Assembly: GCF_900478135.1 (NCBI RefSeq)
Contig: NZ_LS483470.1
Location: 1,376,071 to 1,408,070 of the forward strand
Reading direction: 5' to 3'
DNA length: 32,000 nt
DNA from: Leminorella richardii
GTDB lineage: Bacteria > Pseudomonadota > Gammaproteobacteria > Enterobacterales > Enterobacteriaceae
Shown here: positions 14,706 through 29,681 of the stretch, one piece after another
Numbering within the stretch: position 1 is the first letter of the stretch
Layout: each line of letters starts with the position of its first letter
Program-made: the position numbers and the translations under genes
Notes under the pieces: model-generated
What the model was told of the DNA's origin: nothing
The model's input: only the letters and a program-made list of their open reading frames with translations
Database searches by the model: none

Positions 14706-15377
14706 ATGAAAGATACCGTTGAGATTTTTAGCCGACGTCGCGTGAACGTTGAGAAACTGCTTCCTTACGGATTTCAACAGGATGACGGTGGCTATCTTTA
14801 TCAGGCCGATTTAGTTAAAGGCCAGTTTAAGATGACGGTGGTGGTTTCTCCTGAAGGCGCTGTGACAACGGCAGTGGTGGACGCATCCACAGGGGAGGAC
14901 TATGTACTTCATCGCGTCGCGGCTACTGTTGGCGAGTTTGTCGGTAAGGTGCGTGAAGAGTACGAGCAGGTGCTTATTCATATTGCCGATACGTGCTTTA
15001 CCTCCGACGTTTTTAAAAGCCAAATGGCTAAGCAGATTATTCAGTTTGTCCGCGATAAATATCACTCCGAGCTGGAGTTTCTCTGGCCTCGCACTCCCGA
15101 TAACGCTATTTTTCGGCGTGTAGACAATGCCAAGTGGTACGGTGCAATACTGACAGTCAGTGGTAAAACGCTGGGTTTGGATGATGCTTCTCGGCTAGAA
15201 ATCCTGAATGTGCGTATGAGGCCGGATGACGTCGTGGCGCTGACTGACGGTAAAAAATACTTTCCAGGCTACCACATGAACAAAAAGCACTGGGTTACTC
15301 TTCGCCTAGACGGTTCTGTGCCTATCGAAGAGATATTGATGCGGATTGATGATAGCTTTGGGCTTGTGGGGGCCTGA
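14706..15377 (+). CDS. MmcQ/YjbR-family protein
   Basis: ATG at 14706 with a GGAG 7 nt upstream; the ORF track opens at a GTG at 14694. The C-terminal part (FRRVDNAKWYGAIL...PGYHMNKKHWVTLRLDGSVP) matches the YjbR fold signature. Confidence 0.7.
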   Translation: MKDTVEIFSRRRVNVEKLLPYGFQQDDGGYLYQADLVKGQFKMTVVVSPEGAVTTAVVDASTGEDYVLHRVAATVGEFVGKVREEYEQVLIHIADTCFTSDVFKSQMAKQIIQFVRDKYHSELEFLWPRTPDNAIFRRVDNAKWYGAILTVSGKTLGLDDASRLEILNVRMRPDDVVALTDGKKYFPGYHMNKKHWVTLRLDGSVPIEEILMRIDDSFGLVGA

Positions 15378-16896: not shown

Positions 16897-17262
16897 ATGG
16901 AGGGTTCTGTGTGGACAATTAAAACAACGGATAGGTTCGATAATTGGTTTACCTCACTCAGCGATACCGATCGCGTTAGTGTGCTCGCTGCACTGATGAT
17001 TCTGCGGGAAAGAGGGCCGGGGTTACCCAGACCTTATGCCGATACGCTCAGAGGCTCCAGCTATAGCAATATGAAAGAGCTGCGTATACAGAGTCGGGGC
17101 GATCCGATACGGGCATTTTTCGCTTTTGACCTTGAGCGCACTGGGATTGTGCTGTGTGCTGGTAATAAAGTTGGTAATGAAAAGAGTTTTTACAATGAGA
17201 TGCTCCCGATTGCAGACAGGGAGTTCACAAACTGGCTAAATACATTAAAAGAGAAGGAGTAA
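16897..17262 (+). CDS. Type II toxin, RelE/ParE superfamily (HigB-like addiction module killer protein)
   Basis: About 117-121 aa. An alternative GTG start at 16909 lies 4 nt after GGAGGG. WTIKTTDRFDNWF...MKELRI....IRAFFAFD....VLCAGNK is the pattern of the phage Gp49-like killer family. The stop is 4 nt from the antitoxin start. Confidence 0.75.
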   Translation: MEGSVWTIKTTDRFDNWFTSLSDTDRVSVLAALMILRERGPGLPRPYADTLRGSSYSNMKELRIQSRGDPIRAFFAFDLERTGIVLCAGNKVGNEKSFYNEMLPIADREFTNWLNTLKEKE

Positions 17263-17266
17263 CGCG

Positions 17267-17569
17267 ATGGGCAGAACGCTGGAACAGCTTATTGCTGATG
17301 AAAAACCAGAGGTTGTCGCTGAAGCGCAGGCAGTGGCGACAGATATTTTGCTCAATATCCATCTTGCTGAACTGCGCGAAAAAGTGCAGAAAACGCAGGT
17401 CGAAATGGCTCAAACTCTGGGTATTAAACAGCCTACTGTGGCAGGGATGGAAAAACCGGGACGTGACCTGAAACTTTCTACACTCAAACGCTACGTTGAG
17501 GCGGCGGGCGGCAAACTGCGACTTGATGTTGAACTGCCGGATGGCTCTCATTATGGGTTTGTTTTGTAG
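17267..17569 (+). CDS. XRE-family HTH antitoxin partner of the HigB-like toxin
   Basis: 100 aa with a central HTH (KTQVEMAQTLGIKQPTVAGMEKPGRDLKLSTLKRYVEAAG). Toxin-first order as in higBA. Confidence 0.75.
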   Translation: MGRTLEQLIADEKPEVVAEAQAVATDILLNIHLAELREKVQKTQVEMAQTLGIKQPTVAGMEKPGRDLKLSTLKRYVEAAGGKLRLDVELPDGSHYGFVL

Positions 17570-18038
17570 GTGTGGGGTGGGGGATTTGGGGTAGCAAATG
17601 TGCTGATACGCCTCTGAGATAGTCGCGAGAGATTAATCGTGAAGCATGAGGCATTGTACCTAAGCAAATATAACCTTCGTCCTGTCGTTAGTGTCTCTCC
17701 GGCGCGGCTTTGATATGGAAGCTGTGCCGCATTTCGTTTATTTGATCCATCATAATCCTTTGAACTATAAAAACAGTTTTCTATTATCGACCTTCTTACC
17801 ACGAACTAAGCTCCCGCCTGCACAAAATGCTTCATGACCTGAAAGAAGCGCCTTATGTATCAGGATGGTCGCTGTTTTACCGACAATGCCGCATTTGAAA
17901 ACTGCCGGATCTGTCCTTAGATGGATTACGGCTTTCCTCACGCATTATTACGCTAAGGAGATCGTAATGAATATGATGAATAATTGTGCATCGTCTATCG
18001 CAAATGTTATATTAAAATATAATATTTGGAGGTGCTCT

Positions 18039-18296
18039 ATGTATACAACTCGCCTGAAAAAGGTCGGTGGCTCTATCATGCTGACGGTTCCTCCTGCTGT
18101 GTTGAAAACGCTGGCGCTGTCGACGGACAGCGAAGTGGGTATGACTATTGAGAATGGCTGCCTGATTATTGAACCCCAGAAACGGCCCCGTTATTCGCTT
18201 GAGGAGCTGCTGGCGCAGTGCGATCCGCACGCCGAAATGAGCGAAGAGGATCGTGAATGGATTGATGCGCCTGCGGTGGGTAAGGAGATCCTCTAA
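18039..18296 (+). CDS. pemI: PemI/MazE-type antitoxin (AbrB/SpoVT fold)
   Basis: True start is the ATG at 18039, preceded by GGAGG at 18028-18032. MYTTRLKKVGGSIMLTVPPAVLKTLAL... is PemI/ChpS-like. The stop abuts the pemK ATG at 18297. Confidence 0.85.
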   Translation: MYTTRLKKVGGSIMLTVPPAVLKTLALSTDSEVGMTIENGCLIIEPQKRPRYSLEELLAQCDPHAEMSEEDREWIDAPAVGKEIL

Positions 18297-18629
18297 ATGG
18301 ACAGAGGGGAAATCTGGCTTGTTTCACTGGATCCGATTGCTGGTCACGAGCAAAGCGGAAAACGCCCGGTACTTATCGTATCGAAGGCATCGTTTAACAA
18401 TCTGACCCGGCTACCCGTTGTTGTTCCCGTTACCAGCGGCGGAAACTTTGCCCGCACAGCCGGTTTTACCGTCTCACTGGATGGTTCGGGAACAAAAACA
18501 ACAGGGGTTATTCGCTGCGACCAACCGAGAACTATTGATATAGGCGCTCGTAATGGCAAGCGGTTGGAGCGTATACCTGACAGTATTACCAACGAGGTGC
18601 TGGCTCGACTAGGGGCTATTCTTTTCTGA
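18297..18629 (+). CDS. pemK: PemK/MazF-family endoribonuclease toxin
   Basis: 110 aa. Nearly collinear with plasmid R100 PemK from memory: M.RGEIWLVSLDP.AGHEQ.G.RPVLIV....FN..TRLPVVVPVTSGGNFARTAGF.VSLDG.G..TTGV.RCDQPRTID..AR.GKRLER.P. Confidence 0.9.
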   Translation: MDRGEIWLVSLDPIAGHEQSGKRPVLIVSKASFNNLTRLPVVVPVTSGGNFARTAGFTVSLDGSGTKTTGVIRCDQPRTIDIGARNGKRLERIPDSITNEVLARLGAILF

Positions 18630-18671: not shown

Positions 18672-18693
18672 AAATTTGGCTCCTCTGACTGGA
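18672..18693. repeat. attL: 22-bp direct repeat containing the last 17 nt of tRNA-Asn
   Basis: aaatttggctcctctgactgga is identical to 26597-26618 and 29601-29622. Confidence 0.9.
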
Positions 18694-19137
18694 TGCGACA
18701 TTCTTTTTATCTAATTGAATTTAAAATGATTTTATTTTTTAAATCAAAATGAGGCCCTTATAAAGGCCCCATATGTTATTGCTGTTTTGAAATGTGACAT
18801 TTGTCACGTTTTATATTGCTGTACTGTCAGTTGATAGATATTACAGTCGACTTTGTGCCAGAAGCGGATGTTGCCGACACAGTACTGCGTCATTGAAAGG
18901 GAGTAAACCAATGAAACTGACGTTAGCGGGTTCTCATTTTCTGATTTCGAAGAGCATTTTGTAGGATATCAAGAGGCAAGATTTCCATGAGGATGCTTAT
19001 GTGAGGCTGCAATTTTCTGAACTCCTTTAACATTTTCGGTGATCAGCATTTGAACTATCCATCTGCTTGCAACATACTGTCAAATATGGGAATTAGTAAT
19101 TTCAAAGAAACCATCAACGATAACTATTGGATATGCC

Positions 19138-20349
19138 ATGGCCGACAGAAGTGCAGTTGACACAATACGAGGTTATTTTTATCAATTTGATCTAACTATT
19201 CTAAGCATCTTGAAACTAACATCCTTAGACGAATCTGTTGAAATCGAATGCACTGAGGACATTGACATTCGAACCGCAACAGACGTCACAGCTACACAAT
19301 GCAAATATTACGCCAAGACCGAATACAACCACTCTGTCATCAAAGATGCGATAAAGCATATGGTATCGCATTTCAAGGAAACGCTATCAGGTACGAAGCC
19401 AAAGATCTTTTACTCTATATATGGACACTATGCGTCAGGCCAAGAAAAATTGGATGTAGAGATAAACGTTGATTTCCTAAAGAAACACTTCCTAACCTAC
19501 ACCAAGGAAAAAATCACATACCACCATCATCAAGATTTACAACTTACAGATGCAGATCTTGAAGAGTTCCTAAATCGGTTAACCATAAATATCAGAGCAG
19601 TAGAGTTTAATACACAGTTTCAAGAAGTGATCGACATTCTCCAAACGATCTTTAAGACTAAACAGTTCTCAGCTGAATACTTTTATTACAACAACGCACT
19701 AGCTGTTATACGAGAACTTTCAATCGAGGCAGTTCAAAAAAATCGTTCGATTACAAAGAAAGAATTCTTAGAAAGGATCAATACTTCCAGCGTTCTCTTT
19801 AATGAATGGTTCGTTGAGAAAAAAGGGAGAAAAGCACATTTTGCGGCTCTACGTAATCAATATTTCTCAGAAGTTAACATATCTCCATTTGAACGCTTCT
19901 TTCTGGTAGAAATAGATACGGCTTCTTACGTTCGATACGAACTCAAAAATCTTCTATTTGAGTTTTCCCGGAAGTGGTCCAAATTGTCGAGGCGAGAACC
20001 TGCTCCTTTCTGCCCGTACATATATATACATGGATTATCGGAGAGTGAGTTACTCGCACTAAAAAGTGAACTTAATACCGAAGGTTTTAAGTTTATAGAC
20101 GGTCACGATTTCCATGGTGCTGATTTTAGCTGCCAATCTATTGTTCAGAAAGCTACATATGGTAATGGTATCAAACTTAAAATTCTAAATATTCTTCAAA
20201 ATGTTAATCATACTGTAGATACCATTACTAAGACTCGACGTATTTACCAATTTCACATAGGCCCTAGCTTCTTTGAATACGATAAACCAGCAGTTCAACA
20301 TGTCAAAATTCAGATAGAACAACTTTCAGACGTCAAGTCAATCATCTAG
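19138..20349 (+). CDS. Hypothetical protein with a DUF4297/Cap4-like PD-(D/E)xK nuclease N-terminus and an unassigned ~300-aa C-terminal region
   Basis: 403 aa. Motifs are GYFYQ (res 12-16), the acidic cluster E35/E37/E40-D41/D43 and Q54-C-K56. This order and spacing match the DUF4297 nuclease domain as I recall it. No motif was recognised after about res 100. AT-rich. Confidence 0.6.
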   Translation: MADRSAVDTIRGYFYQFDLTILSILKLTSLDESVEIECTEDIDIRTATDVTATQCKYYAKTEYNHSVIKDAIKHMVSHFKETLSGTKPKIFYSIYGHYASGQEKLDVEINVDFLKKHFLTYTKEKITYHHHQDLQLTDADLEEFLNRLTINIRAVEFNTQFQEVIDILQTIFKTKQFSAEYFYYNNALAVIRELSIEAVQKNRSITKKEFLERINTSSVLFNEWFVEKKGRKAHFAALRNQYFSEVNISPFERFFLVEIDTASYVRYELKNLLFEFSRKWSKLSRREPAPFCPYIYIHGLSESELLALKSELNTEGFKFIDGHDFHGADFSCQSIVQKATYGNGIKLKILNILQNVNHTVDTITKTRRIYQFHIGPSFFEYDKPAVQHVKIQIEQLSDVKSII

Positions 20350-20365
20350 TTGAAGGAAACTTAAC

Positions 20366-22048
20366 ATGGACCCTAGACAAGAAGAACAAATTAATGCCCA
20401 AGTCATTGCAGTATTCCCAGATAAAGTACGTATCATCGTGGATGACCTTGAGGATTTTAAAATAGCGGAAGAGTCACTGAAAGTTGGTTCTTACGTCAAA
20501 ATTGCGGATAACGAAAATGCAGTTCTTATAGCAATCATTGAAAACTTCCAAATAGCAGTTAGCGCTGAAGGGAAGCGGGATCACATCATTGAAGCTTTTC
20601 CTTTAGGCATCTTAAGAAATGGTAAGTTTGAACGAGGCGGTGATTCACTAGCTATTCCGCCAAAAGAGGTCCAGCCCGCAACCATCTCTGACATAAAGAA
20701 AATCTATGAAGACTCGGTGCCTAAAGAGGCATCTTTTCGTTTTGCTACATTATCCTCAAATATAAGTGTTCCAGTTCCCGTAAACGGAGATAAATTTTTC
20801 AACAAACATATTGCTGTCGTCGGGTCTACTGGCTCAGGAAAATCACATACTTTAGCAACTATTATTCAGAAAGCTGTATCCGAAAAAGGAGATGGTTTCT
20901 CATTAAATAATTCACATGTAATTATTTTCGACATACACTCTGAGTATAAATCAGCATTTCCTTCAGCAAACCATATTGATATATCCAATTTAGCTTTACC
21001 ATATTGGATGCTGAATAGTGAAGAATTGGAGGAATTCTTCCTCGATACTGAAGCCAACGATCACAATCAGAGAAATATTTTCAAAGAAGCCATAATAAAA
21101 GATCGCCTTGCAAAATTTTCAGGTTCAGCCTCTGAAAAACAAAATATTCACCTCGATACTCCTATTCTATTCGATATTCGGGAAGTTCTTGCGTACGCAA
21201 TTGCAAAAAATGAAGAGATGGTCAATACCGGAGAGGTTTACGCTTCGAGCAATAAAGAGAAAGCGGGACAGCCAAAATACACACAAGGTAGTCTTCATGG
21301 AAAACTGACTAACTTTGTGAATCGACTTGAGAACAAGCTTAATGATAGTAGGCTAAACTTCTTTCTTGGCGAGCAGTCCATGAAAATCACTTTCGAAGAA
21401 ACCCTCCAAAAACTGCTAGGATACTCCTCGAAAAGTGAATCGAACGTAACCGTTATTGACTTAAGTGGAGTTCCGTTCGAAGTTCTGAGTATAACTGTCT
21501 CACTTATCTCACGCCTCGTATTCGAATACGGTTATATATACAAACGTATACGTTGTGCCAAAAACCCAAATGAGAAAATCAATAATGACATTCCGATTCT
21601 GCTCGTTTATGAAGAAGCGCATAAATATGTCCCTAATAGTGATCTTTCAAAATATCGAGCTTCAAAAGTAGCCATAGAGCGAATTGCAAAGGAAGGACGA
21701 AAATATGGCGTAACATTGCTGCTAGCAAGTCAACGTCCATCCGAAATATCCGAAACAATCTTTTCGCAGTGCAGTAACTTTATTGCTATGCGCTTAACCA
21801 ATCCAGCGGATCAAGGATACGTTAAAAAGTTACTGCCAGATTCACTCGGTTCGTTGATCGATAAAATGACATCGTTCCGTCAAGGGGAAGCATTACTGGT
21901 TGGCGAATCTATAATTCTTCCCTCAATCGTCCAAATTGAGCCATGTATACACACCCCATCTTCTAGTGATATCCCGTACTGGCAACTTTGGAAGGAAGAA
22001 TGGAAAAATATGGACTTTGCTGCTATTAAGGAAGAGTGGTATAAATAA
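20366..22048 (+). CDS. HerA/DUF87-type (FtsK-HerA superfamily) P-loop ATPase
   Basis: 560 aa. GAAGGA SD; 16-nt gap from the upstream gene. Walker A GSTGSGKS (res 153-160), VIIFDIHSEY (185-194), Walker B ILLVYEEAH (411-419), RKYGVTLLLASQRPSEI (445-461). The N-terminal segment is HAS-barrel-like. Confidence 0.8.
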   Translation: MDPRQEEQINAQVIAVFPDKVRIIVDDLEDFKIAEESLKVGSYVKIADNENAVLIAIIENFQIAVSAEGKRDHIIEAFPLGILRNGKFERGGDSLAIPPKEVQPATISDIKKIYEDSVPKEASFRFATLSSNISVPVPVNGDKFFNKHIAVVGSTGSGKSHTLATIIQKAVSEKGDGFSLNNSHVIIFDIHSEYKSAFPSANHIDISNLALPYWMLNSEELEEFFLDTEANDHNQRNIFKEAIIKDRLAKFSGSASEKQNIHLDTPILFDIREVLAYAIAKNEEMVNTGEVYASSNKEKAGQPKYTQGSLHGKLTNFVNRLENKLNDSRLNFFLGEQSMKITFEETLQKLLGYSSKSESNVTVIDLSGVPFEVLSITVSLISRLVFEYGYIYKRIRCAKNPNEKINNDIPILLVYEEAHKYVPNSDLSKYRASKVAIERIAKEGRKYGVTLLLASQRPSEISETIFSQCSNFIAMRLTNPADQGYVKKLLPDSLGSLIDKMTSFRQGEALLVGESIILPSIVQIEPCIHTPSSSDIPYWQLWKEEWKNMDFAAIKEEWYK

Positions 22049-22092
22049 TCGCATCATATCTTGGTAGAAAGCGAATACCATGTATTTACAGA

Positions 22093-22121
22093 TTGAGTCG
22101 ATTCGTCCTGAATCGACTCAA
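22093..22121 (+). terminator. Stem-loop downstream of the HerA-like gene (no U-tract)
   Basis: Perfect 12-bp inverted repeat ttgagtcgattc-gtcct-gaatcgactcaa, 45 nt after the stop. Confidence 0.4.
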
Positions 22122-22264
22122 AGTATAGGAGTTTTAATCTCAATCACACCTTAGCCTTACAAATCTCCGGTGGATCTATATTTGTCAGACTATTATTTAT
22201 TGTGAATTGGCGATTATCGTAGACTTCAATGCCGTTAAATCCACTTTTCTCTCTTATCCGATTG

Positions 22265-23137
22265 TCAAATTTGCCCATACACCTGCTCTACATACCGCCC
22301 ACGTCCATCACCATGCCCCAGATCCATCGCCACCATTGCCAGCGCCTCCTTCCTGCTAAATCCCTGCGCCAGATAGTAACGAATAGCATCCTGCGCCCAC
22401 GCATAGCGCAGCGAATGCGGAGAATATGCGCCAGTCAGACCAATACGTGCCGCCTGGTTGTGCCAGTAGTCCATAGCACTTTTCAGATCCGGCTTGTCGA
22501 TCAGTCGGTCATTACGGCTTTCAGCAATATTCAACGCATTATCCAGCGCTTTTCTGACTGCGCCAGTATCCAAAATCACCGTTTCGCGTGGCCGTCCGCC
22601 TTTGGTGCCGAACACCACGGTTAAGCGCGTATCGCCGCGCTCAACGGCCTGTTTCCACGTTTTCAGTGACTGTACACTCTGCACCGCCTCCTGCGAACGC
22701 AGCCCCATCAGCCGCGCTAGTTCCAGCGCCGCCGCCAGACCCGGATCTTTCGCATGGGTCGTTTCCAGCACATGGAGGTAATGATCCGGTGTGATGGCTT
22801 GTCGCGTACCGTTACGCGATGCACCAGACAGCCCCAGCGATTTATTAGTCAGCCGCTCATGCTCTGCCACCTGCTTACGCCCGGCCTGTTGCAGAATGGT
22901 GCGCAATGAGGCCATTTCATTTTGCAATGTGCGTTTGCCGATCCCCTGCGCCAGTCTTGCATGAATATAGTTTTCAATGTGGCGAACCTTAATCTGTGCC
23001 ACGCGCTGGATCTGGACGTTCAGCGCCCGTAAGTGGTGATCGAAACGCTGCACGATATGGATGCGATCGTTCACCGTTTTATGGCTACCGCCACAGTGCT
23101 TTGCCAGCGCCTTCATTTCACAGCCTAACTTACCCAT
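22265..23137 (-). CDS. Small tyrosine-recombinase (phage integrase family) domain protein
   Basis: 290 aa. Candidate catalytic pattern: R in LARLMGLRSQEA, HSLRYAW (H-x-x-R), GHGDGRGRYVEQVY (H...Y). It lacks the DUF4102-type arm-binding N-terminus of the P4-type integrase. Confidence 0.65.
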   Translation of the reverse strand: MGKLGCEMKALAKHCGGSHKTVNDRIHIVQRFDHHLRALNVQIQRVAQIKVRHIENYIHARLAQGIGKRTLQNEMASLRTILQQAGRKQVAEHERLTNKSLGLSGASRNGTRQAITPDHYLHVLETTHAKDPGLAAALELARLMGLRSQEAVQSVQSLKTWKQAVERGDTRLTVVFGTKGGRPRETVILDTGAVRKALDNALNIAESRNDRLIDKPDLKSAMDYWHNQAARIGLTGAYSPHSLRYAWAQDAIRYYLAQGFSRKEALAMVAMDLGHGDGRGRYVEQVYGQI

Positions 23138-24019
23138 GCACTTCCCCTTAATTTTGAGAATACAAATAGTCTCCGGCGTATGCTTTTTGGCTGTGCCAGA
23201 ACGATACCTTCACGCCGGAGTGGCAGTTTGTTGAGGTATAGGGAGTTTCAGCCAGTACGCGGTACGGGCTGCCTGCGTGAGCAGGAATTCTCCGGGGCAT
23301 CATGCCCCCCTCGGTATCGATCTTTTTCTCCTTTCTTCTTGCTGACTGCGGCCTAAAAAAGGCGTGTCAGATGCGGGAATGAGCACCGGAACCCCGAAAT
23401 CAGGCGTATGGTGCGGTGTGGTGGTTGTGCGTCACTTTGTCGCTTTGCGCGACGAAAGTGACGCACTGGTCGGGTGCAGTGCGCGAAAGAGCGCGGGGTC
23501 TGGTGCAGTTTTACGGTCACGCGGCAGCAAAGCCTTGCGGCAACGCAGGCCGCAGCCCGTAAAGTAAAAGGCGCTGATGTGGCAGCAGGTGCAGGTTTAC
23601 CGGAGCGTTTCCGGCGCAGTGCAATATTGGCCAGAGATCTGGCGCAGATAAAAAGCGCTGATAATCAGCAGGTACAGACGAACCGGGAAATCGTGAGACT
23701 TCCGGTCGGATGGAAACACAGCCAGCGAGCTGGCGCAGTGAAAGGATGTATCGTGTATAACTCTCAACCTCTGCCGCAGTATCTGCGGCCCGGCATTTTT
23801 GCAGAGGCCCTGCCGGTAAAATGGCAACCATCTCCTGACAGGTCAGGCGCTTCTTTCAGGTCATGAAGCATTGGGTGCTGTCGGCGACAGCATAGGGCAG
23901 GAGGGAGATTACAGCCGTTTTCCGCGAATGAAAAGGGGAAACCTTTTTTTCGGGAATTGAGTTGTTTGTAGATTTTTTCGCAATTTTATGAATGACACTC
24001 TGCCGCGCTTCGCTTGTCT

Positions 24020-24062
24020 TCTCCCGCTCTTCCGCCAGCAGAGCTGGCAGAAGAGCGGGAGA
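24020..24062. repeat. Long GC-rich hairpin just 3' of the Ner-like gene
   Basis: tctcccgctcttc-c-gccagc-aga-gctggc-a-gaagagcgggaga: 13 + 6 bp of pairing. No clear U-tract on either strand. Confidence 0.6.
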
Positions 24063-24074
24063 GTCGGTTTAGCT

Positions 24075-24296
24075 TCAACGGTATTCTGGCTTTCGGTAAC
24101 GGGACGGCCAGATCTGTTCAGGCGCAACGCCCAATTCTTCGGCTATCAGCCTTTCGCCTTTAGGCCAGTGTCGGTTAAGGGCATTGGTCAGCGTGGAAGA
24201 GGCCAATCCGGCCCTGCGCGATACCGCAGCCAGAGACGTTCCTTTCTTCCGTAACCCGGCGATGATGTCTGCCGGGTGCCAGTCGTCTTTATCCAT
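24075..24296 (-). CDS. Ner/Nlp(SfsB)-like HTH DNA-binding protein
   Basis: DWHPADIIAGLRKKGTSLAAVSRRAGLASSTLTNALNRHWPKGERLIAEELGVAPEQIWPSRY is collinear with E. coli Nlp from memory. The ATG at 24296 has a GGGAGA about 6 nt upstream; the ORF track opens at 24332. Confidence 0.85.
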   Translation of the reverse strand: MDKDDWHPADIIAGLRKKGTSLAAVSRRAGLASSTLTNALNRHWPKGERLIAEELGVAPEQIWPSRYRKPEYR

Positions 24297-24360
24297 TGGT
24301 TTCTCCCTGTCTGTCATCCTGAACGAAAGCACCGATCTGCTTCCGGCCTCTGCTTTATTT

Positions 24361-24407
24361 ATCTTTAGTAACTCTAAAGATAATGAATCTTAAGGAATGC
24401 TAAAGAT
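24361..24407. promoter_or_regulatory. Candidate operators between the Ner-like gene and XRE copy 1
   Basis: 8-bp inverted repeat atctttag-taact-ctaaagat (24361-24381) plus a third ctaaagat half-site (24400-24407). The arrangement recurs at 24753-24798 upstream of XRE copy 2. Confidence 0.5.
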
Positions 24408-24440
24408 GGTGTCAACGTAAGTATTAACAAGACACGTAAT

Positions 24441-24725
24441 ATGATCCCTGAACGACTGAAAGCCGCAAGGTTACGGGCCAACCTTACCCAGGAGCAATTG
24501 GGTGTCCGCGCAGGCATAGCTGAAGACACCGCTTATTCAAGACTCTCTCAGTATGAAAGTGGAACGCACAAACCGACGTTTAAAATGGTTTGTGCTTTTG
24601 CCTGTGTGCTAAACGTTCCTGAATGCTATTTCTACACGGTGGATGATAGTTTCGCCGAAGCGCTATTAAGGTTGTATGACGGCGAGGTAGTTCAGTGGAA
24701 TATGAAAGTGGGGAATTGCTCTTAA
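24441..24725 (+). CDS. XRE-family HTH protein, copy 1
   Basis: 94 aa. MIPERLKAARLRANLTQEQLGV...SRLSQYESGTHKPTF..V...A.VLNVPECYFYTVDD. Confidence 0.8.
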   Translation: MIPERLKAARLRANLTQEQLGVRAGIAEDTAYSRLSQYESGTHKPTFKMVCAFACVLNVPECYFYTVDDSFAEALLRLYDGEVVQWNMKVGNCS

Positions 24726-24831
24726 TACAAAAAGGAAACGGGCGTTTGTTCGTCTTTATGAACTCTAAAGAAAAACATTCTTGAGGAATGCTAAAGATTA
24801 CCCTCATAAATTCAAACTGATGGTAATTTCG

Positions 24832-25092
24832 ATGATCCCCAAACGCTTAAAAGAAGCCCGGTTGCGGGCGAAACTCACGCAGGAAAAGTTGGGGGTACTG
24901 GCCGGAATAGAAGAGGCAACAGCTTACTCCCGCCTCTCACACTATGAGAACGGCACTCATAAGCCTACTTTTGATCTTGTCTGCGAATTTGCCAAAGTGC
25001 TCAACGTACCGGAGTGCTATTTCTATACGGTTGATGATGATTTTGCCGAAGCGGTACTGGATCTTTATGTCCGGTGGGAAAGTAAATCCTGA
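24832..25092 (+). CDS. XRE-family HTH protein, copy 2 (tandem paralog)
   Basis: ATG at 24832 gives MIPKRLKEARLRAKLTQEKLGV..., roughly three-quarters identical to copy 1 by eye over the shared ~78 aa. Start-to-start period is 391 bp. Confidence 0.8.
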   Translation: MIPKRLKEARLRAKLTQEKLGVLAGIEEATAYSRLSHYENGTHKPTFDLVCEFAKVLNVPECYFYTVDDDFAEAVLDLYVRWESKS

Positions 25093-25103
25093 TCAGAAAA
25101 TAA

Positions 25104-25127
25104 CTTTGCCCCTGAACAGGGGCAAAG
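25104..25127 (-). terminator. Terminator for the integrase gene (also closes the XRE genes)
   Basis: ctttgcccctg-aa-caggggcaaag, followed on the minus strand by ttattttc. Confidence 0.55.
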
Positions 25128-25174
25128 AGCTGGCTTTCCGTTAATTGACGGAAAAAGAAATAGCTGTATTTTTA

Positions 25175-26436
25175 TTACGACACGTTTTTCAGGGGAGCTG
25201 CGTACTGATAAGGGGAAATATACCCGCCGAGATTTGCGTCCAGATAATTCGCCCACCACTGCATCATCGCGATCCGTTCCTCCAGATATTCAGCCTTATG
25301 GATATAAGCAGCGCGGACGCTGTTTCTTTCCTGATGGCTCATCTGCTTTTCAATGGCTTCTTTGCTCCACAGCCCGACTCACTCAGCGCGCTGCACGCCA
25401 TTGCCCTGAAACCGTGGCCGCAGACGTCTTTTTTGGTGTCGTAGCCCATCACGCGCAATGCTTTATTAATCGTGCTGTCGCTCATGCATTTATCCTGATC
25501 GTATTCGCCGGGGAAAATGAAGGCCAGATGGCCGGAGAGCGCTTCAATTTGCTTTAAGACAGCAACAGCCTGATCGGACAACGGAACGATATGTTGCGTT
25601 TTCATTTTTGTGCCGCGATGAGAGAAGCGCACGTTTTCGATCTGCTCCCGCTCTTCCGGGATTATCCAGAGTTTTTGCTGCCAGTCGATTTCACTCCAGC
25701 GGGCAAAGCGCAGTTCGCTGGAGCGCACAAAAAATAGCAGTGACAGCTTAAGCGCGTACCGTGTCAGCAGTCTGCCGGGGTAGTTATTCGTCCGCGATAA
25801 CAATTCAGGCATTTTCTCAAGGGGCAGGGCCGGGTAATGTTGCGTTTCCGGCGGTGTAAACTCGCCGTCCAGATCCAGTGCCGGGTTTGATTTGATTAAC
25901 TGCTTCTTCACCGCATAGCGCATGATTTCAGTGACGTAGTTTTTCAGCCGGGCGGTAATTTCCAGAAAGCCTTTGTTCTCCACCTTACGCAGGGTAAACA
26001 GCAAATCCTCCGTGAGGATCTGATCGATGAATTTTTCCCCGATATCCGGGAAAACGTACATTTCCAGCCTGCGCTGGATGGTCGTTGCATAATGCGCAGA
26101 CCAGCGTTTGTGATCGGCGTGCCAGTTCATGGCGATCTGCCGGAATGTTTGCCCGTTTTTCTTTTTCTGCTGCGCGATTTTTTTATCAGCAGAAGGATCG
26201 GCCCCTTCACGAACTTTAGCGCGTGCGGCATCGCGTAGCTGACGCGCCTTAAACAGAGAAATATCCGGGTAGGGGCCAAAGGCCAGCTTTTTCTCTTTAC
26301 CAAAGATGCGGTACTTCATGTACCAGAGTTTTGAGCCGTTGGGTTTGATCAGCAGGTAGAGTCCTGCACTGTCAGTAATCTTGAAGGATTTATCGGTGGG
26401 TTTGATCTTGCGGATTGCGGTATCGGTTAATGCCAT
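25175..26436 (-). pseudogene. P4-type tyrosine integrase (DUF4102 arm-binding N-terminus), frameshifted before the catalytic Tyr
   Basis: N-terminus is MALTDTAIRKIKPTDKSFKITDSAGLYLLIKPNGSKLWYMKYR. The frame is lost after ...HGFRAMACSALSESG at about 25370-25376 (CCC run 25373-25375). The next frame continues LWSKEAIEKQMSHQERNSVRAAYIHKAEYLEERIAMMQWWANYLDAN..., with the stop at 25175-25177. Confidence 0.8.
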
Positions 26437-26596
26437 AGGTGGGGGCTCCATTTTCTCAACGAACCGTGAGGCCCCCGATTAAGCCCCCAAAAACTATGGA
26501 TGTCAAGAAACCCGGTAAACCTTCGCAGGTCAACCGGGTTAAGATAAGTTCTTGTTTTTTAAACGTCTCCGGACTTACTGGGATGTCCCGAAACTA

Positions 26597-26618
26597 AAAT
26601 TTGGCTCCTCTGACTGGA
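26597..26618. repeat. attR: 22-bp direct repeat overlapping the 3' end of the intact tRNA-Asn
   Basis: Identical to 18672-18693. Confidence 0.9.
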
Positions 26619-26677
26619 CTTGAACCAGTGACATACGGATTAACAGTCCGCCGTTCTACCGACTGAACTACAGAGGA
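26602..26677 (-). tRNA. tRNA-Asn (GUU)
   Basis: The reverse complement is tcctctgtagttcagtcggtagaacggcggactgttaatccgtatgtcactggttcaagtccagtcagaggagcca. 76 nt with encoded CCA. It differs from E. coli tRNA-Asn as remembered at one T-stem position. Confidence 0.95.
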
Positions 26678-29600: not shown

Positions 29601-29622
29601 AAATTTGGCTCCTCTGACTGGA
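29601..29622. repeat. Third copy of the 22-bp att core: unoccupied attB in tRNA-Asn copy 2
   Basis: aaatttggctcctctgactgga is identical to attL/attR. The left flank (gcgggctttCg) matches the attL flank (gcgggctttTg). Confidence 0.85.
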
Positions 29623-29681
29623 CTTGAACCAGTGACATACGGATTAACAGTCCGCCGTTCTACCGACTGAACTACAGAGGA
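29606..29681 (-). tRNA. tRNA-Asn (GUU), second copy
   Basis: 76 nt, identical to 26602-26677. Confidence 0.95.

Follow-up and report, generated by a model that had tools for sequence, protein, structure and literature searches.

We report that two adjacent open reading frames (ORFs) in a stretch of 32,000 nucleotides (nt) of DNA from Leminorella richardii (contig NZ_LS483470.1; hereafter the window, with positions counted from its first letter) very probably constitute a complete DUF4297-HerA anti-phage system, carried as cargo by a 7.9-kb island at a tRNA-Asn gene of L. richardii or a very close relative. ORF1 encodes the DUF4297 effector and ORF2 the HerA-family ATPase. Both proteins belong to the families that define this system, the genes stand in its characteristic order, both reading frames are intact and full length relative to the family models, and the catalytic residues are all preserved. 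The initial annotation, made from the sequence alone, had proposed a DUF4297/Cap4-type nuclease paired with a HerA ATPase, and the curated models, the alignments with solved structures and the conservation of the required residues all bear this out. The novelty that it implied does not hold, as the pair belongs to an already characterised system (discovered in 2020, with structures solved in 2024-25), of which the Leminorella copy is a standard, intact representative. The discovery is attributed to Gao et al. (2020), as cited in PMC11291478. Current annotation models and defence-finder tools pick up the pair automatically.

The ORF1 protein matches the NCBIfam equivalog model NF042945, "DUF4297 family anti-phage-associated protein", with 553.8 bits at a cut-off of 300 bits (residues 4-403 cover all 400 model positions), and the PADLOC model PDLC02187 at 7.7e-164 over model positions 1-404 of 404. 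Its best match among solved structures is chain 8xav_G, where residues 3-403 align with residues 2-394 (E = 2.9e-90, 39.8% identity). RefSeq already gives the exact ORF1 protein from Leminorella richardii (Budviciaceae) the same name as the NCBIfam model. The domain organisation comprises a Cap4-like PD-(D/E)xK nuclease (residues ~1-229), a hinge at G230 and a C-terminal alpha/beta oligomerisation domain (residues ~231-403). The nuclease domain carries the motif GYFYQ (12-16), an acidic cluster of E35, E37, E40, D41 and D43, and the residues Q54 and K56. Residues D41, Q54 and K56 align with D40, Q53 and K55 of the E. coli protein, which are needed for nuclease activity and defence in E. coli (An et al. 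2024, PMC11291478), and they are invariant in 17 sequences, as are, among the homologues, the acidic residues E37, E40 and D43. Residue conservation was assessed in sets of 16-17 homologues with identity to the window proteins as low as 38%. The PADLOC model of LmuA, a protein with a Cap4-like nuclease, also matches residues 3-281 (4e-16).

The initial annotation could assign nothing to the remaining ~300 amino acids (aa) of ORF1 and suggested a novel sensor or oligomerisation domain; the structural alignment accounts for this portion as the rest of the nuclease and a known C-terminal domain (CTD). Residues 231-403 align with the solved domain, termed "CTD" by An et al. (PMC11291478) and "UFO" by Rish et al., and G230 is, by sequence, the counterpart of G224, the hinge between the nuclease and C-terminal domains of E. 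coli DUF4297 (PMC11291478). The hinge glycine is kept in 16 of 17 homologues. On this alignment, ORF1 ends not in a novel sensor but in the known domain through which DUF4297 oligomerises and binds the HAS barrel of HerA.

The evidence for ORF2 is of the same kind. The protein scores 917.5 bits against the NCBIfam equivalog NF042944 (HerA_antiphage_2, "anti-phage-associated helicase HerA"), for which the cut-off is 850 bits; it matches the PADLOC model PDLC02188 end to end (1.6e-280) and the Pfam family DUF87, the HerA central domain (8.9e-33). Pfam and PADLOC models had been named as a check in the initial annotation, together with two results that would speak against it, namely an ORF1 without a DUF4297 match and an ORF2 resembling a conjugation or packaging ATPase; what was found instead are strong matches of both proteins to the expected families. 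The best solved structure is 8xau_A (residues 7-560 on 5-570, E = 2.4e-204, 58.7% identity), and the protein follows the plan of a HAS beta-barrel, a RecA-like core, a helix bundle whose insertion is shortened, and a C-terminal hook. The recognisable motifs are GSTGSGKS (153-160, with the Walker A lysine K159), DIHSEY (189-194), LLVYEEAH (412-419) and ASQRPSEI (454-461). The Walker A residues K159 and S160, the Walker B residues E416 and E417 and the arginine-finger residues R445 and K446 are invariant in 16 sequences and correspond to K157, S158, E426, E427, R455 and K456 of E. coli HerA. In that protein, ATPase activity and defence both depend on K157, the nucleotide is coordinated via Mg2+ by S158 and E426/E427, R455/K456 form an arginine finger acting in trans, and mutating basic residues of the Walker A motif and of the finger lowers ATPase activity sharply (PMC11291478). 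The aromatic residues of the hook (Y538, W542, W546 and W558) are likewise invariant among homologues. The mutants proposed in the initial annotation, K159A in ORF2 and D41A/K56A in ORF1, correspond exactly to K157A and D40A/Q53A/K55A, which have been published (PMC11291478).

The exact ORF2 protein is likewise recorded from Leminorella richardii, where it carries a different name in the original GenBank record, "Type IV secretory pathway, VirB4 components", and is called "ATP-binding protein" in RefSeq. The former name, together with weak matches to the Pfam families FtsK_SpoIIIE and TrwB, could be taken to mean that ORF2 is a conjugation, secretion or repair ATPase (VirB4/TraC/FtsK, or the HerA of a HerA-NurA pair) and that ORF1 is unrelated to it. 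We consider this scarcely conceivable, and the family models and solved-structure alignments already refute it. The FtsK_SpoIIIE and TrwB matches are confined to the P-loop (residues 146-203) and fall below the cut-offs, the score for the models of traC and TraD is 11 bits where ~520 are required, and no transfer genes were found in the island. As for an end-resection pair, the repair HerA models score 120 bits (NF040819, cut-off 970) and 119 bits (NF040937, cut-off 800) while the anti-phage HerA_2 model is passed, ORF1 is not NurA, and the island contains no NurA. The name "VirB4 components" is thus wrong for ORF2 and "ATP-binding protein" under-specific; the correct name is anti-phage-associated HerA.

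The closest characterised system is that of E. coli (WP_016239654.1/WP_016239655.1; PDB 8XAU and 8XAV-8XAY), where the two genes also stand in this order. The alignments of both proteins are full length and show the same domain plan, the catalytic residues, arginine-finger residues and hinge glycine are identical, and overall identity is 39.8% for DUF4297 and 58.7% for HerA. There are also differences. The Leminorella genes lie 16 nt apart whereas the E. coli genes overlap or abut; the insertion subdomain of the Leminorella HerA is 16 residues shorter and has M285 and T288 in place of the E. coli contacts R284 and K287; and a leader of ~290 nt is shared by the Enterobacterales members of the Leminorella subclade, whereas the E. 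coli system has no such leader. This subclade is separate from E. coli, the nearest members being those of Pantoea and Rahnella, followed by Pseudomonas, Paraburkholderia, Ralstonia and Vibrio. The structures 9C1M/9C1N (Rish et al.) and 8ZIQ-8ZIT represent the same type of system, with HerA matches at 1.7e-116 and 7.8e-110 and weaker DUF4297 matches at 2.7e-16 (9C1M) and 6.9e-11 (8ZIQ); they are farther from the Leminorella pair than 8XAV, chiefly in the C-terminal half of DUF4297.

Other defence systems share parts of this architecture. In SIR2-HerA, a HerA hexamer likewise serves as a scaffold that activates the effector, and ORF2 matches the corresponding structures (PDB 8j4u/8su9) at 3.5e-28, but the effector there is a SIR2 NADase, for which the Leminorella island has no gene; with 155 bits against a cut-off of 800 for NF042943, membership in SIR2-HerA was rejected. 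CBASS Cap4 and Lamassu LmuA were rejected as well, as the resemblance to LmuA is restricted to the nuclease domain, ORF1 has no SAVED match and the scanned island and flanking ORFs contain no CD-NTase or SMC. The nucleases Cap4 (CBASS), Avs3 and LmuA work with SAVED, STAND or SMC partners or a cyclase, none of which accompanies the Leminorella pair, where activation would come from the HerA ring. Kinship of ORF1 to Cap4 or Avs3 is undetectable by Pfam PF14130 or by a family profile searched against the PDB.

Several points weigh against reading the pair as a functional DUF4297-HerA system. The support for this particular orthologue consists of sequence comparison and homology to the E. coli system, and ORF1 is just ~40% identical to the characterised nuclease subunit. 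The Pfam model Cap4_nuclease (PF14130, formerly DUF4297) does not match ORF1, nor does Pfam overall give anything significant for this protein. This silence is uninformative because PF14130 also misses an E. coli protein 93% identical to the solved chain, as it does the other clade members tried, among which the sole sub-threshold match is a homologue in a P4 satellite (0.0083). A profile built from 16 family members and searched against PDB sequences reached three DUF4297 structures and neither Cap4 nor Avs3; the Cap4-like fold of ORF1 therefore rests on published structures. In ORF2, the residues M285 and T288 occupy the positions of R284 and K287, which reportedly contact DNA in the E. coli insertion. 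An arginine and a lysine in these columns occur in just 2 of 16 family members, and the difference is therefore within-family variation, not failure of a defining feature. Finally, no consensus sigma-70 promoter was found on the + strand upstream of ORF1, which leaves expression of the pair putative.

For the Leminorella pair we infer the following mechanism from its homology to the E. coli system (An et al. 2024; Rish et al.). Six HerA subunits would form a ring, with the HAS barrels at their N-termini holding six lower-layer DUF4297 subunits by the C-terminal domains. These DUF4297 subunits in turn would pair tail-to-tail with six upper-layer subunits to give a complex of ~1 MDa with a DUF4297:HerA stoichiometry of 12:6. 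At the level of sequence, the elements for such an assembly are present, namely the CTD and hinge of ORF1 and the HAS barrel and hook of ORF2. Assembly would flatten HerA into a planar, ATPase-competent hexamer, and the nuclease domains of the upper layer would meet as clamp-shaped dimers in which the PD-(D/E)xK sites (D41/Q54/K56) become active. Using ATP (K159, E416/E417, and R445/K446 in trans), HerA would thread double-stranded DNA through its central channel towards the nuclease, and the complex would degrade phage and host double-stranded DNA, linear as well as circular, without sequence specificity. Loss of host DNA would leave DNA-less cells, and the infected cell would die or arrest before phage release (abortive infection). 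In the characterised systems, DUF4297 or HerA on its own is nearly inactive (An et al., PMC11291478; Rish et al.), and activation driven by assembly has likewise been reported for the 9C1M/9C1N (Rish et al.) and 8ZIQ-8ZIT complexes. By analogy, formation of a 12:6 complex, HerA-dependent activation of the nuclease and protection from phage are likely for the Leminorella pair.

The pair is the sole cargo of a small island and provides a clean example of this arrangement; the features of the island and of the pair are collected in Table 1. The ORF positions, the 16-nt gap, the ribosome-binding sequence and the motif positions given in the initial annotation were all verified in the sequence. The gap between the genes, TTGAAGGAAACTTAAC, contains the Shine-Dalgarno sequence GAAGGA, which ends 8 nt ahead of the ORF2 ATG and is consistent with expression of ORF1 and ORF2 as an operon. 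The distal 22-nt repeat comprises the 3' end of the tRNA-Asn and 5 nt beyond it (expected number of chance matches 0), and the sequence to its left resembles the native terminator 3' of the second tRNA-Asn; a 7.9-kb element (~18694-26601) has therefore been inserted in the tRNA gene. ORF1 starts 445 nt inside the distal repeat, and the earlier placement of the pair at the att-distal cargo end of a tRNA-Asn island is thereby confirmed.

Table 1. Features of the DUF4297-HerA pair, its flanking sequences and the tRNA-Asn island in the window
Feature	Position	Strand	Basis
ORF1, DUF4297 effector, 403 aa	19138-20349	+	family models and solved-structure alignment
ORF2, HerA-family hexameric ATPase/translocase, 560 aa	20366-22048	+	family models and solved-structure alignment
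Shine-Dalgarno sequence GAAGGA for HerA	20352-20357	+	direct sequence reading
Leader conserved with the pair in the closest relatives	18850-19137 (~290 nt)	+	70-79% identity to Pantoea/Rahnella upstream regions
17-codon upstream ORF (uORF) MKLTLAGSHFLISKSIL behind GGGAG	18911-18964	+	ORF listing
Conserved 3' flank	22049-22130 (~80 nt)	+	79-87% identity over ~60-70 nt to loci L006, L017 and L018
Distal att-type direct repeat, 22 nt, AAATTTGGCTCCTCTGACTGGA	18672-18693		exact copy of 26597-26618
tRNA-Asn (GTT), island integration site	26602-26677	-	ARAGORN, Rfam tRNA
Second identical tRNA-Asn, unoccupied	29606-29681	-	ARAGORN, Rfam tRNA
P4-type island integrase	25339-26451	-	Pfam Arm-DNA-bind_3, Phage_int_M, Phage_integrase
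Integrase_1/Phage_int_SAM_2 tyrosine recombinase; island context, outside the defence pair	22265-23137	-	PF12835 2.3e-62, PF12834 7.8e-41
EFASI RNA motif	23198-23325	-	Rfam RF02957, 111.1 bits vs gathering score 51.2

Starting from the tRNA end, the island holds the P4-type integrase, three small helix-turn-helix (HTH) genes, the EFASI RNA, the Integrase_1 gene and the defence pair. No methylase, SIR2 or TIR genes were found within it, and no shared partner was seen in 14 intact related loci, in agreement with the description in the initial annotation of a self-contained two-gene module. The GC content of the gene pair is 0.381 (0.34-0.35 at third codon positions), compared with 0.508 in the rest of the island, 0.473 in the left flank and 0.458 in the right flank; the pair is thus the more AT-rich, as had been noted.

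Relatives were sought in a scan of one genome per species, which found 17 loci. The closest are those of Pantoea sp. B65 and Rahnella rivi (84-85% identity for DUF4297, 95% for HerA), followed by loci in Pseudomonas, Paraburkholderia, Ralstonia, Vibrio, Erwinia, Shewanella, Iodobacter, Acinetobacter, Derxia and a Bryobacter metagenome-assembled genome (MAG), at 53-73% for DUF4297 and 78-88% for HerA, and by a Bacillus MAG (51% and 66%). The 14 intact loci span Gammaproteobacteria, Betaproteobacteria and the Bacillus MAG, to which the contig-truncated copy of the Bryobacter MAG is added. The order DUF4297 to HerA is found in 14 of 14 intact related loci, all of which also have a pair more AT-rich than its surroundings, as in the window. 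No further gene of the window is common to the loci, which agrees with the report of Rish et al. that the cluster includes no other conserved family.

Horizontal delivery of the pair, also proposed in the initial annotation, is well supported by its AT-richness, by the att repeats and integrase, and by relatives on plasmids and in a satellite. ORF1 relatives occur on plasmids or megaplasmids of Ralstonia, Paraburkholderia, Rhizobium and others, and none was found among the phage genomes of the phage collection. In a megablast search of 5,426 complete E. coli genomes the pair was unmatched, and of its flanks just the tRNA-Asn and the MazEF segment gave matches, which shows that the host is not E. 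coli; sensitive blastn against E. coli detected distant homologues alone, in 12 genomes, where they adjoin a relaxase gene or sit inside a P4-like satellite. Because the pair rides an integrative island and its relatives travel on plasmids and a P4-like satellite, it is conceivable that the toxic nuclease chiefly benefits the island, as a factor for addiction or stabilisation or as a weapon against other mobile elements that compete with it, and that protection from phage is secondary. This seems highly improbable to us given that homologues reduce lambda plating 10^5-fold, with an abortive-infection phenotype that requires both active sites (PMC11291478), and that no antitoxin-like partner is indicated.

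A further question is whether the pair is still functional. The P4-type integrase ends early, at 370 aa, whereas the copy on a closely related contig (L001, 99.95% identical to the window over 12.9 kb) is intact at 420 aa and keeps the catalytic C-terminus. The truncation results from one C absent from a C-run at ~25372 relative to L001, and this 1-nt deletion is either a real pseudogene mutation, in which case the island is immobilised, or a homopolymer assembly error. In addition, truncated or frameshifted copies of DUF4297 and/or HerA are found in four related loci (L018-L021: Pantoea sp. BAV 3049, Derxia lacustris, Pseudomonas capeferrum and a gammaproteobacterial MAG); the DUF4297-HerA pair evidently decays repeatedly. 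Combined with the missing consensus promoter, these observations could suggest that the Leminorella pair is a decaying or silent remnant, with its sequence intact, its expression or function gone and its island immobile. We regard this as very unlikely: the ORFs are full length relative to the models with every catalytic residue in place, an identical ORF1 protein occurs on five contigs, from independent assemblies of public sequencing runs, and the integrase frameshift, which involves just one base of a C-run, may have arisen in the assembly.

The sequences around the two genes are conserved together with them in the closest relatives. The leader upstream of ORF1, which is presumed to be a promoter or regulatory region, contains invariant blocks that include GGTTCTCATTTT and ATCAACGATAACTATTGGATA as well as a uORF. 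The 3' flank likely marks the end of the transferred unit, judging from its conservation; leader and flank together delimit this unit, which therefore extends over roughly 18850-22130. No terminator or attenuator was found between the uORF and ORF1. The single-sequence fold of the leader RNA is no better than that of shuffled sequences (z = +0.77), and the covariation term of a four-sequence consensus fold is negligible. Two metagenome pattern scans with the leader blocks returned nothing beyond one unrelated chance match. The uORF is not present upstream of more distant homologues, and the leader is missing upstream of the E. coli genes. The related loci of Ralstonia (L010, positions -83 to -29 from the DUF4297 start) and Bryobacter (L013, positions -89 to -35) share another 17-codon uORF, MAAKFAELKNQNASDAG and MATKFAELKNETPADEG respectively. 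Its sequence shows no relation to that of the Leminorella uORF, and the resemblance may be a coincidence or may mean that short uORFs recur in such leaders.

How the characterised complex is kept from acting before infection has been discussed by An et al., who consider either tight negative regulation or expression solely on infection (PMC11291478). The leader might hold back synthesis of the toxic complex until transcription or translation is disturbed by infection, which corresponds to the second of these options. That the leader is the missing control element of the subclade is a conjecture we rate as unlikely, as is a second and smaller option, by which the shortened HerA insertion would alter the admission of DNA to the ring.

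Some additional observations concern the island and its surroundings. The EFASI RNA precedes the Integrase_1 gene by 60 nt on the same strand, as a 5' leader of that gene would. Two HTH_3 genes in tandem (24441-24725 and 24781-25092, both on the + strand) are mutual paralogues with 68-74% protein identity, and on contig L001 an HTH_35 gene corresponding to window positions ~24074-24295 is called on the opposite strand. The other differences between L001 and the window are a 2-nt indel and two substitutions at 15264-15267 in a YjbR-like gene, two adjacent substitutions at 22456-22457 in the Integrase_1 gene, and one T of a T-run at 23944. Just outside the distal att repeat are two type II toxin-antitoxin pairs, a Gp49/HigB-like toxin with an HTH antitoxin (HigBA-like, 16897-17569, + strand) and MazE with MazF/PemK (17865-18629, + strand); the MazEF segment shares 84-90% identity with E. 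coli DNA, unlike the rest of the flank. A ptsG-like gene for a phosphotransferase system glucose IIBC component (435-1912, - strand) looks split, with an ORF at 435-1556 that covers just model positions 125-477 and an ORF at 1424-1912 that overlaps its start, possibly as a result of a further frameshift or assembly indel. The segment 8111-12564 (+ strand) holds a gene for an anaerobic C4-dicarboxylate transporter and, after it, two aspartate ammonia-lyase-like paralogues in tandem, each of which scores under the aspA equivalog cut-offs.

The significance of this analysis scarcely extends past annotation, in that a further intact DUF4297-HerA system is now recognised, in a little-studied species of Budviciaceae. 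As a divergent orthologue, 40% and 59% identical to the E. coli proteins of known structure, the pair may serve comparative biochemistry, and its conserved leader offers a testable handle on how a constitutively active toxic complex is restrained before infection.

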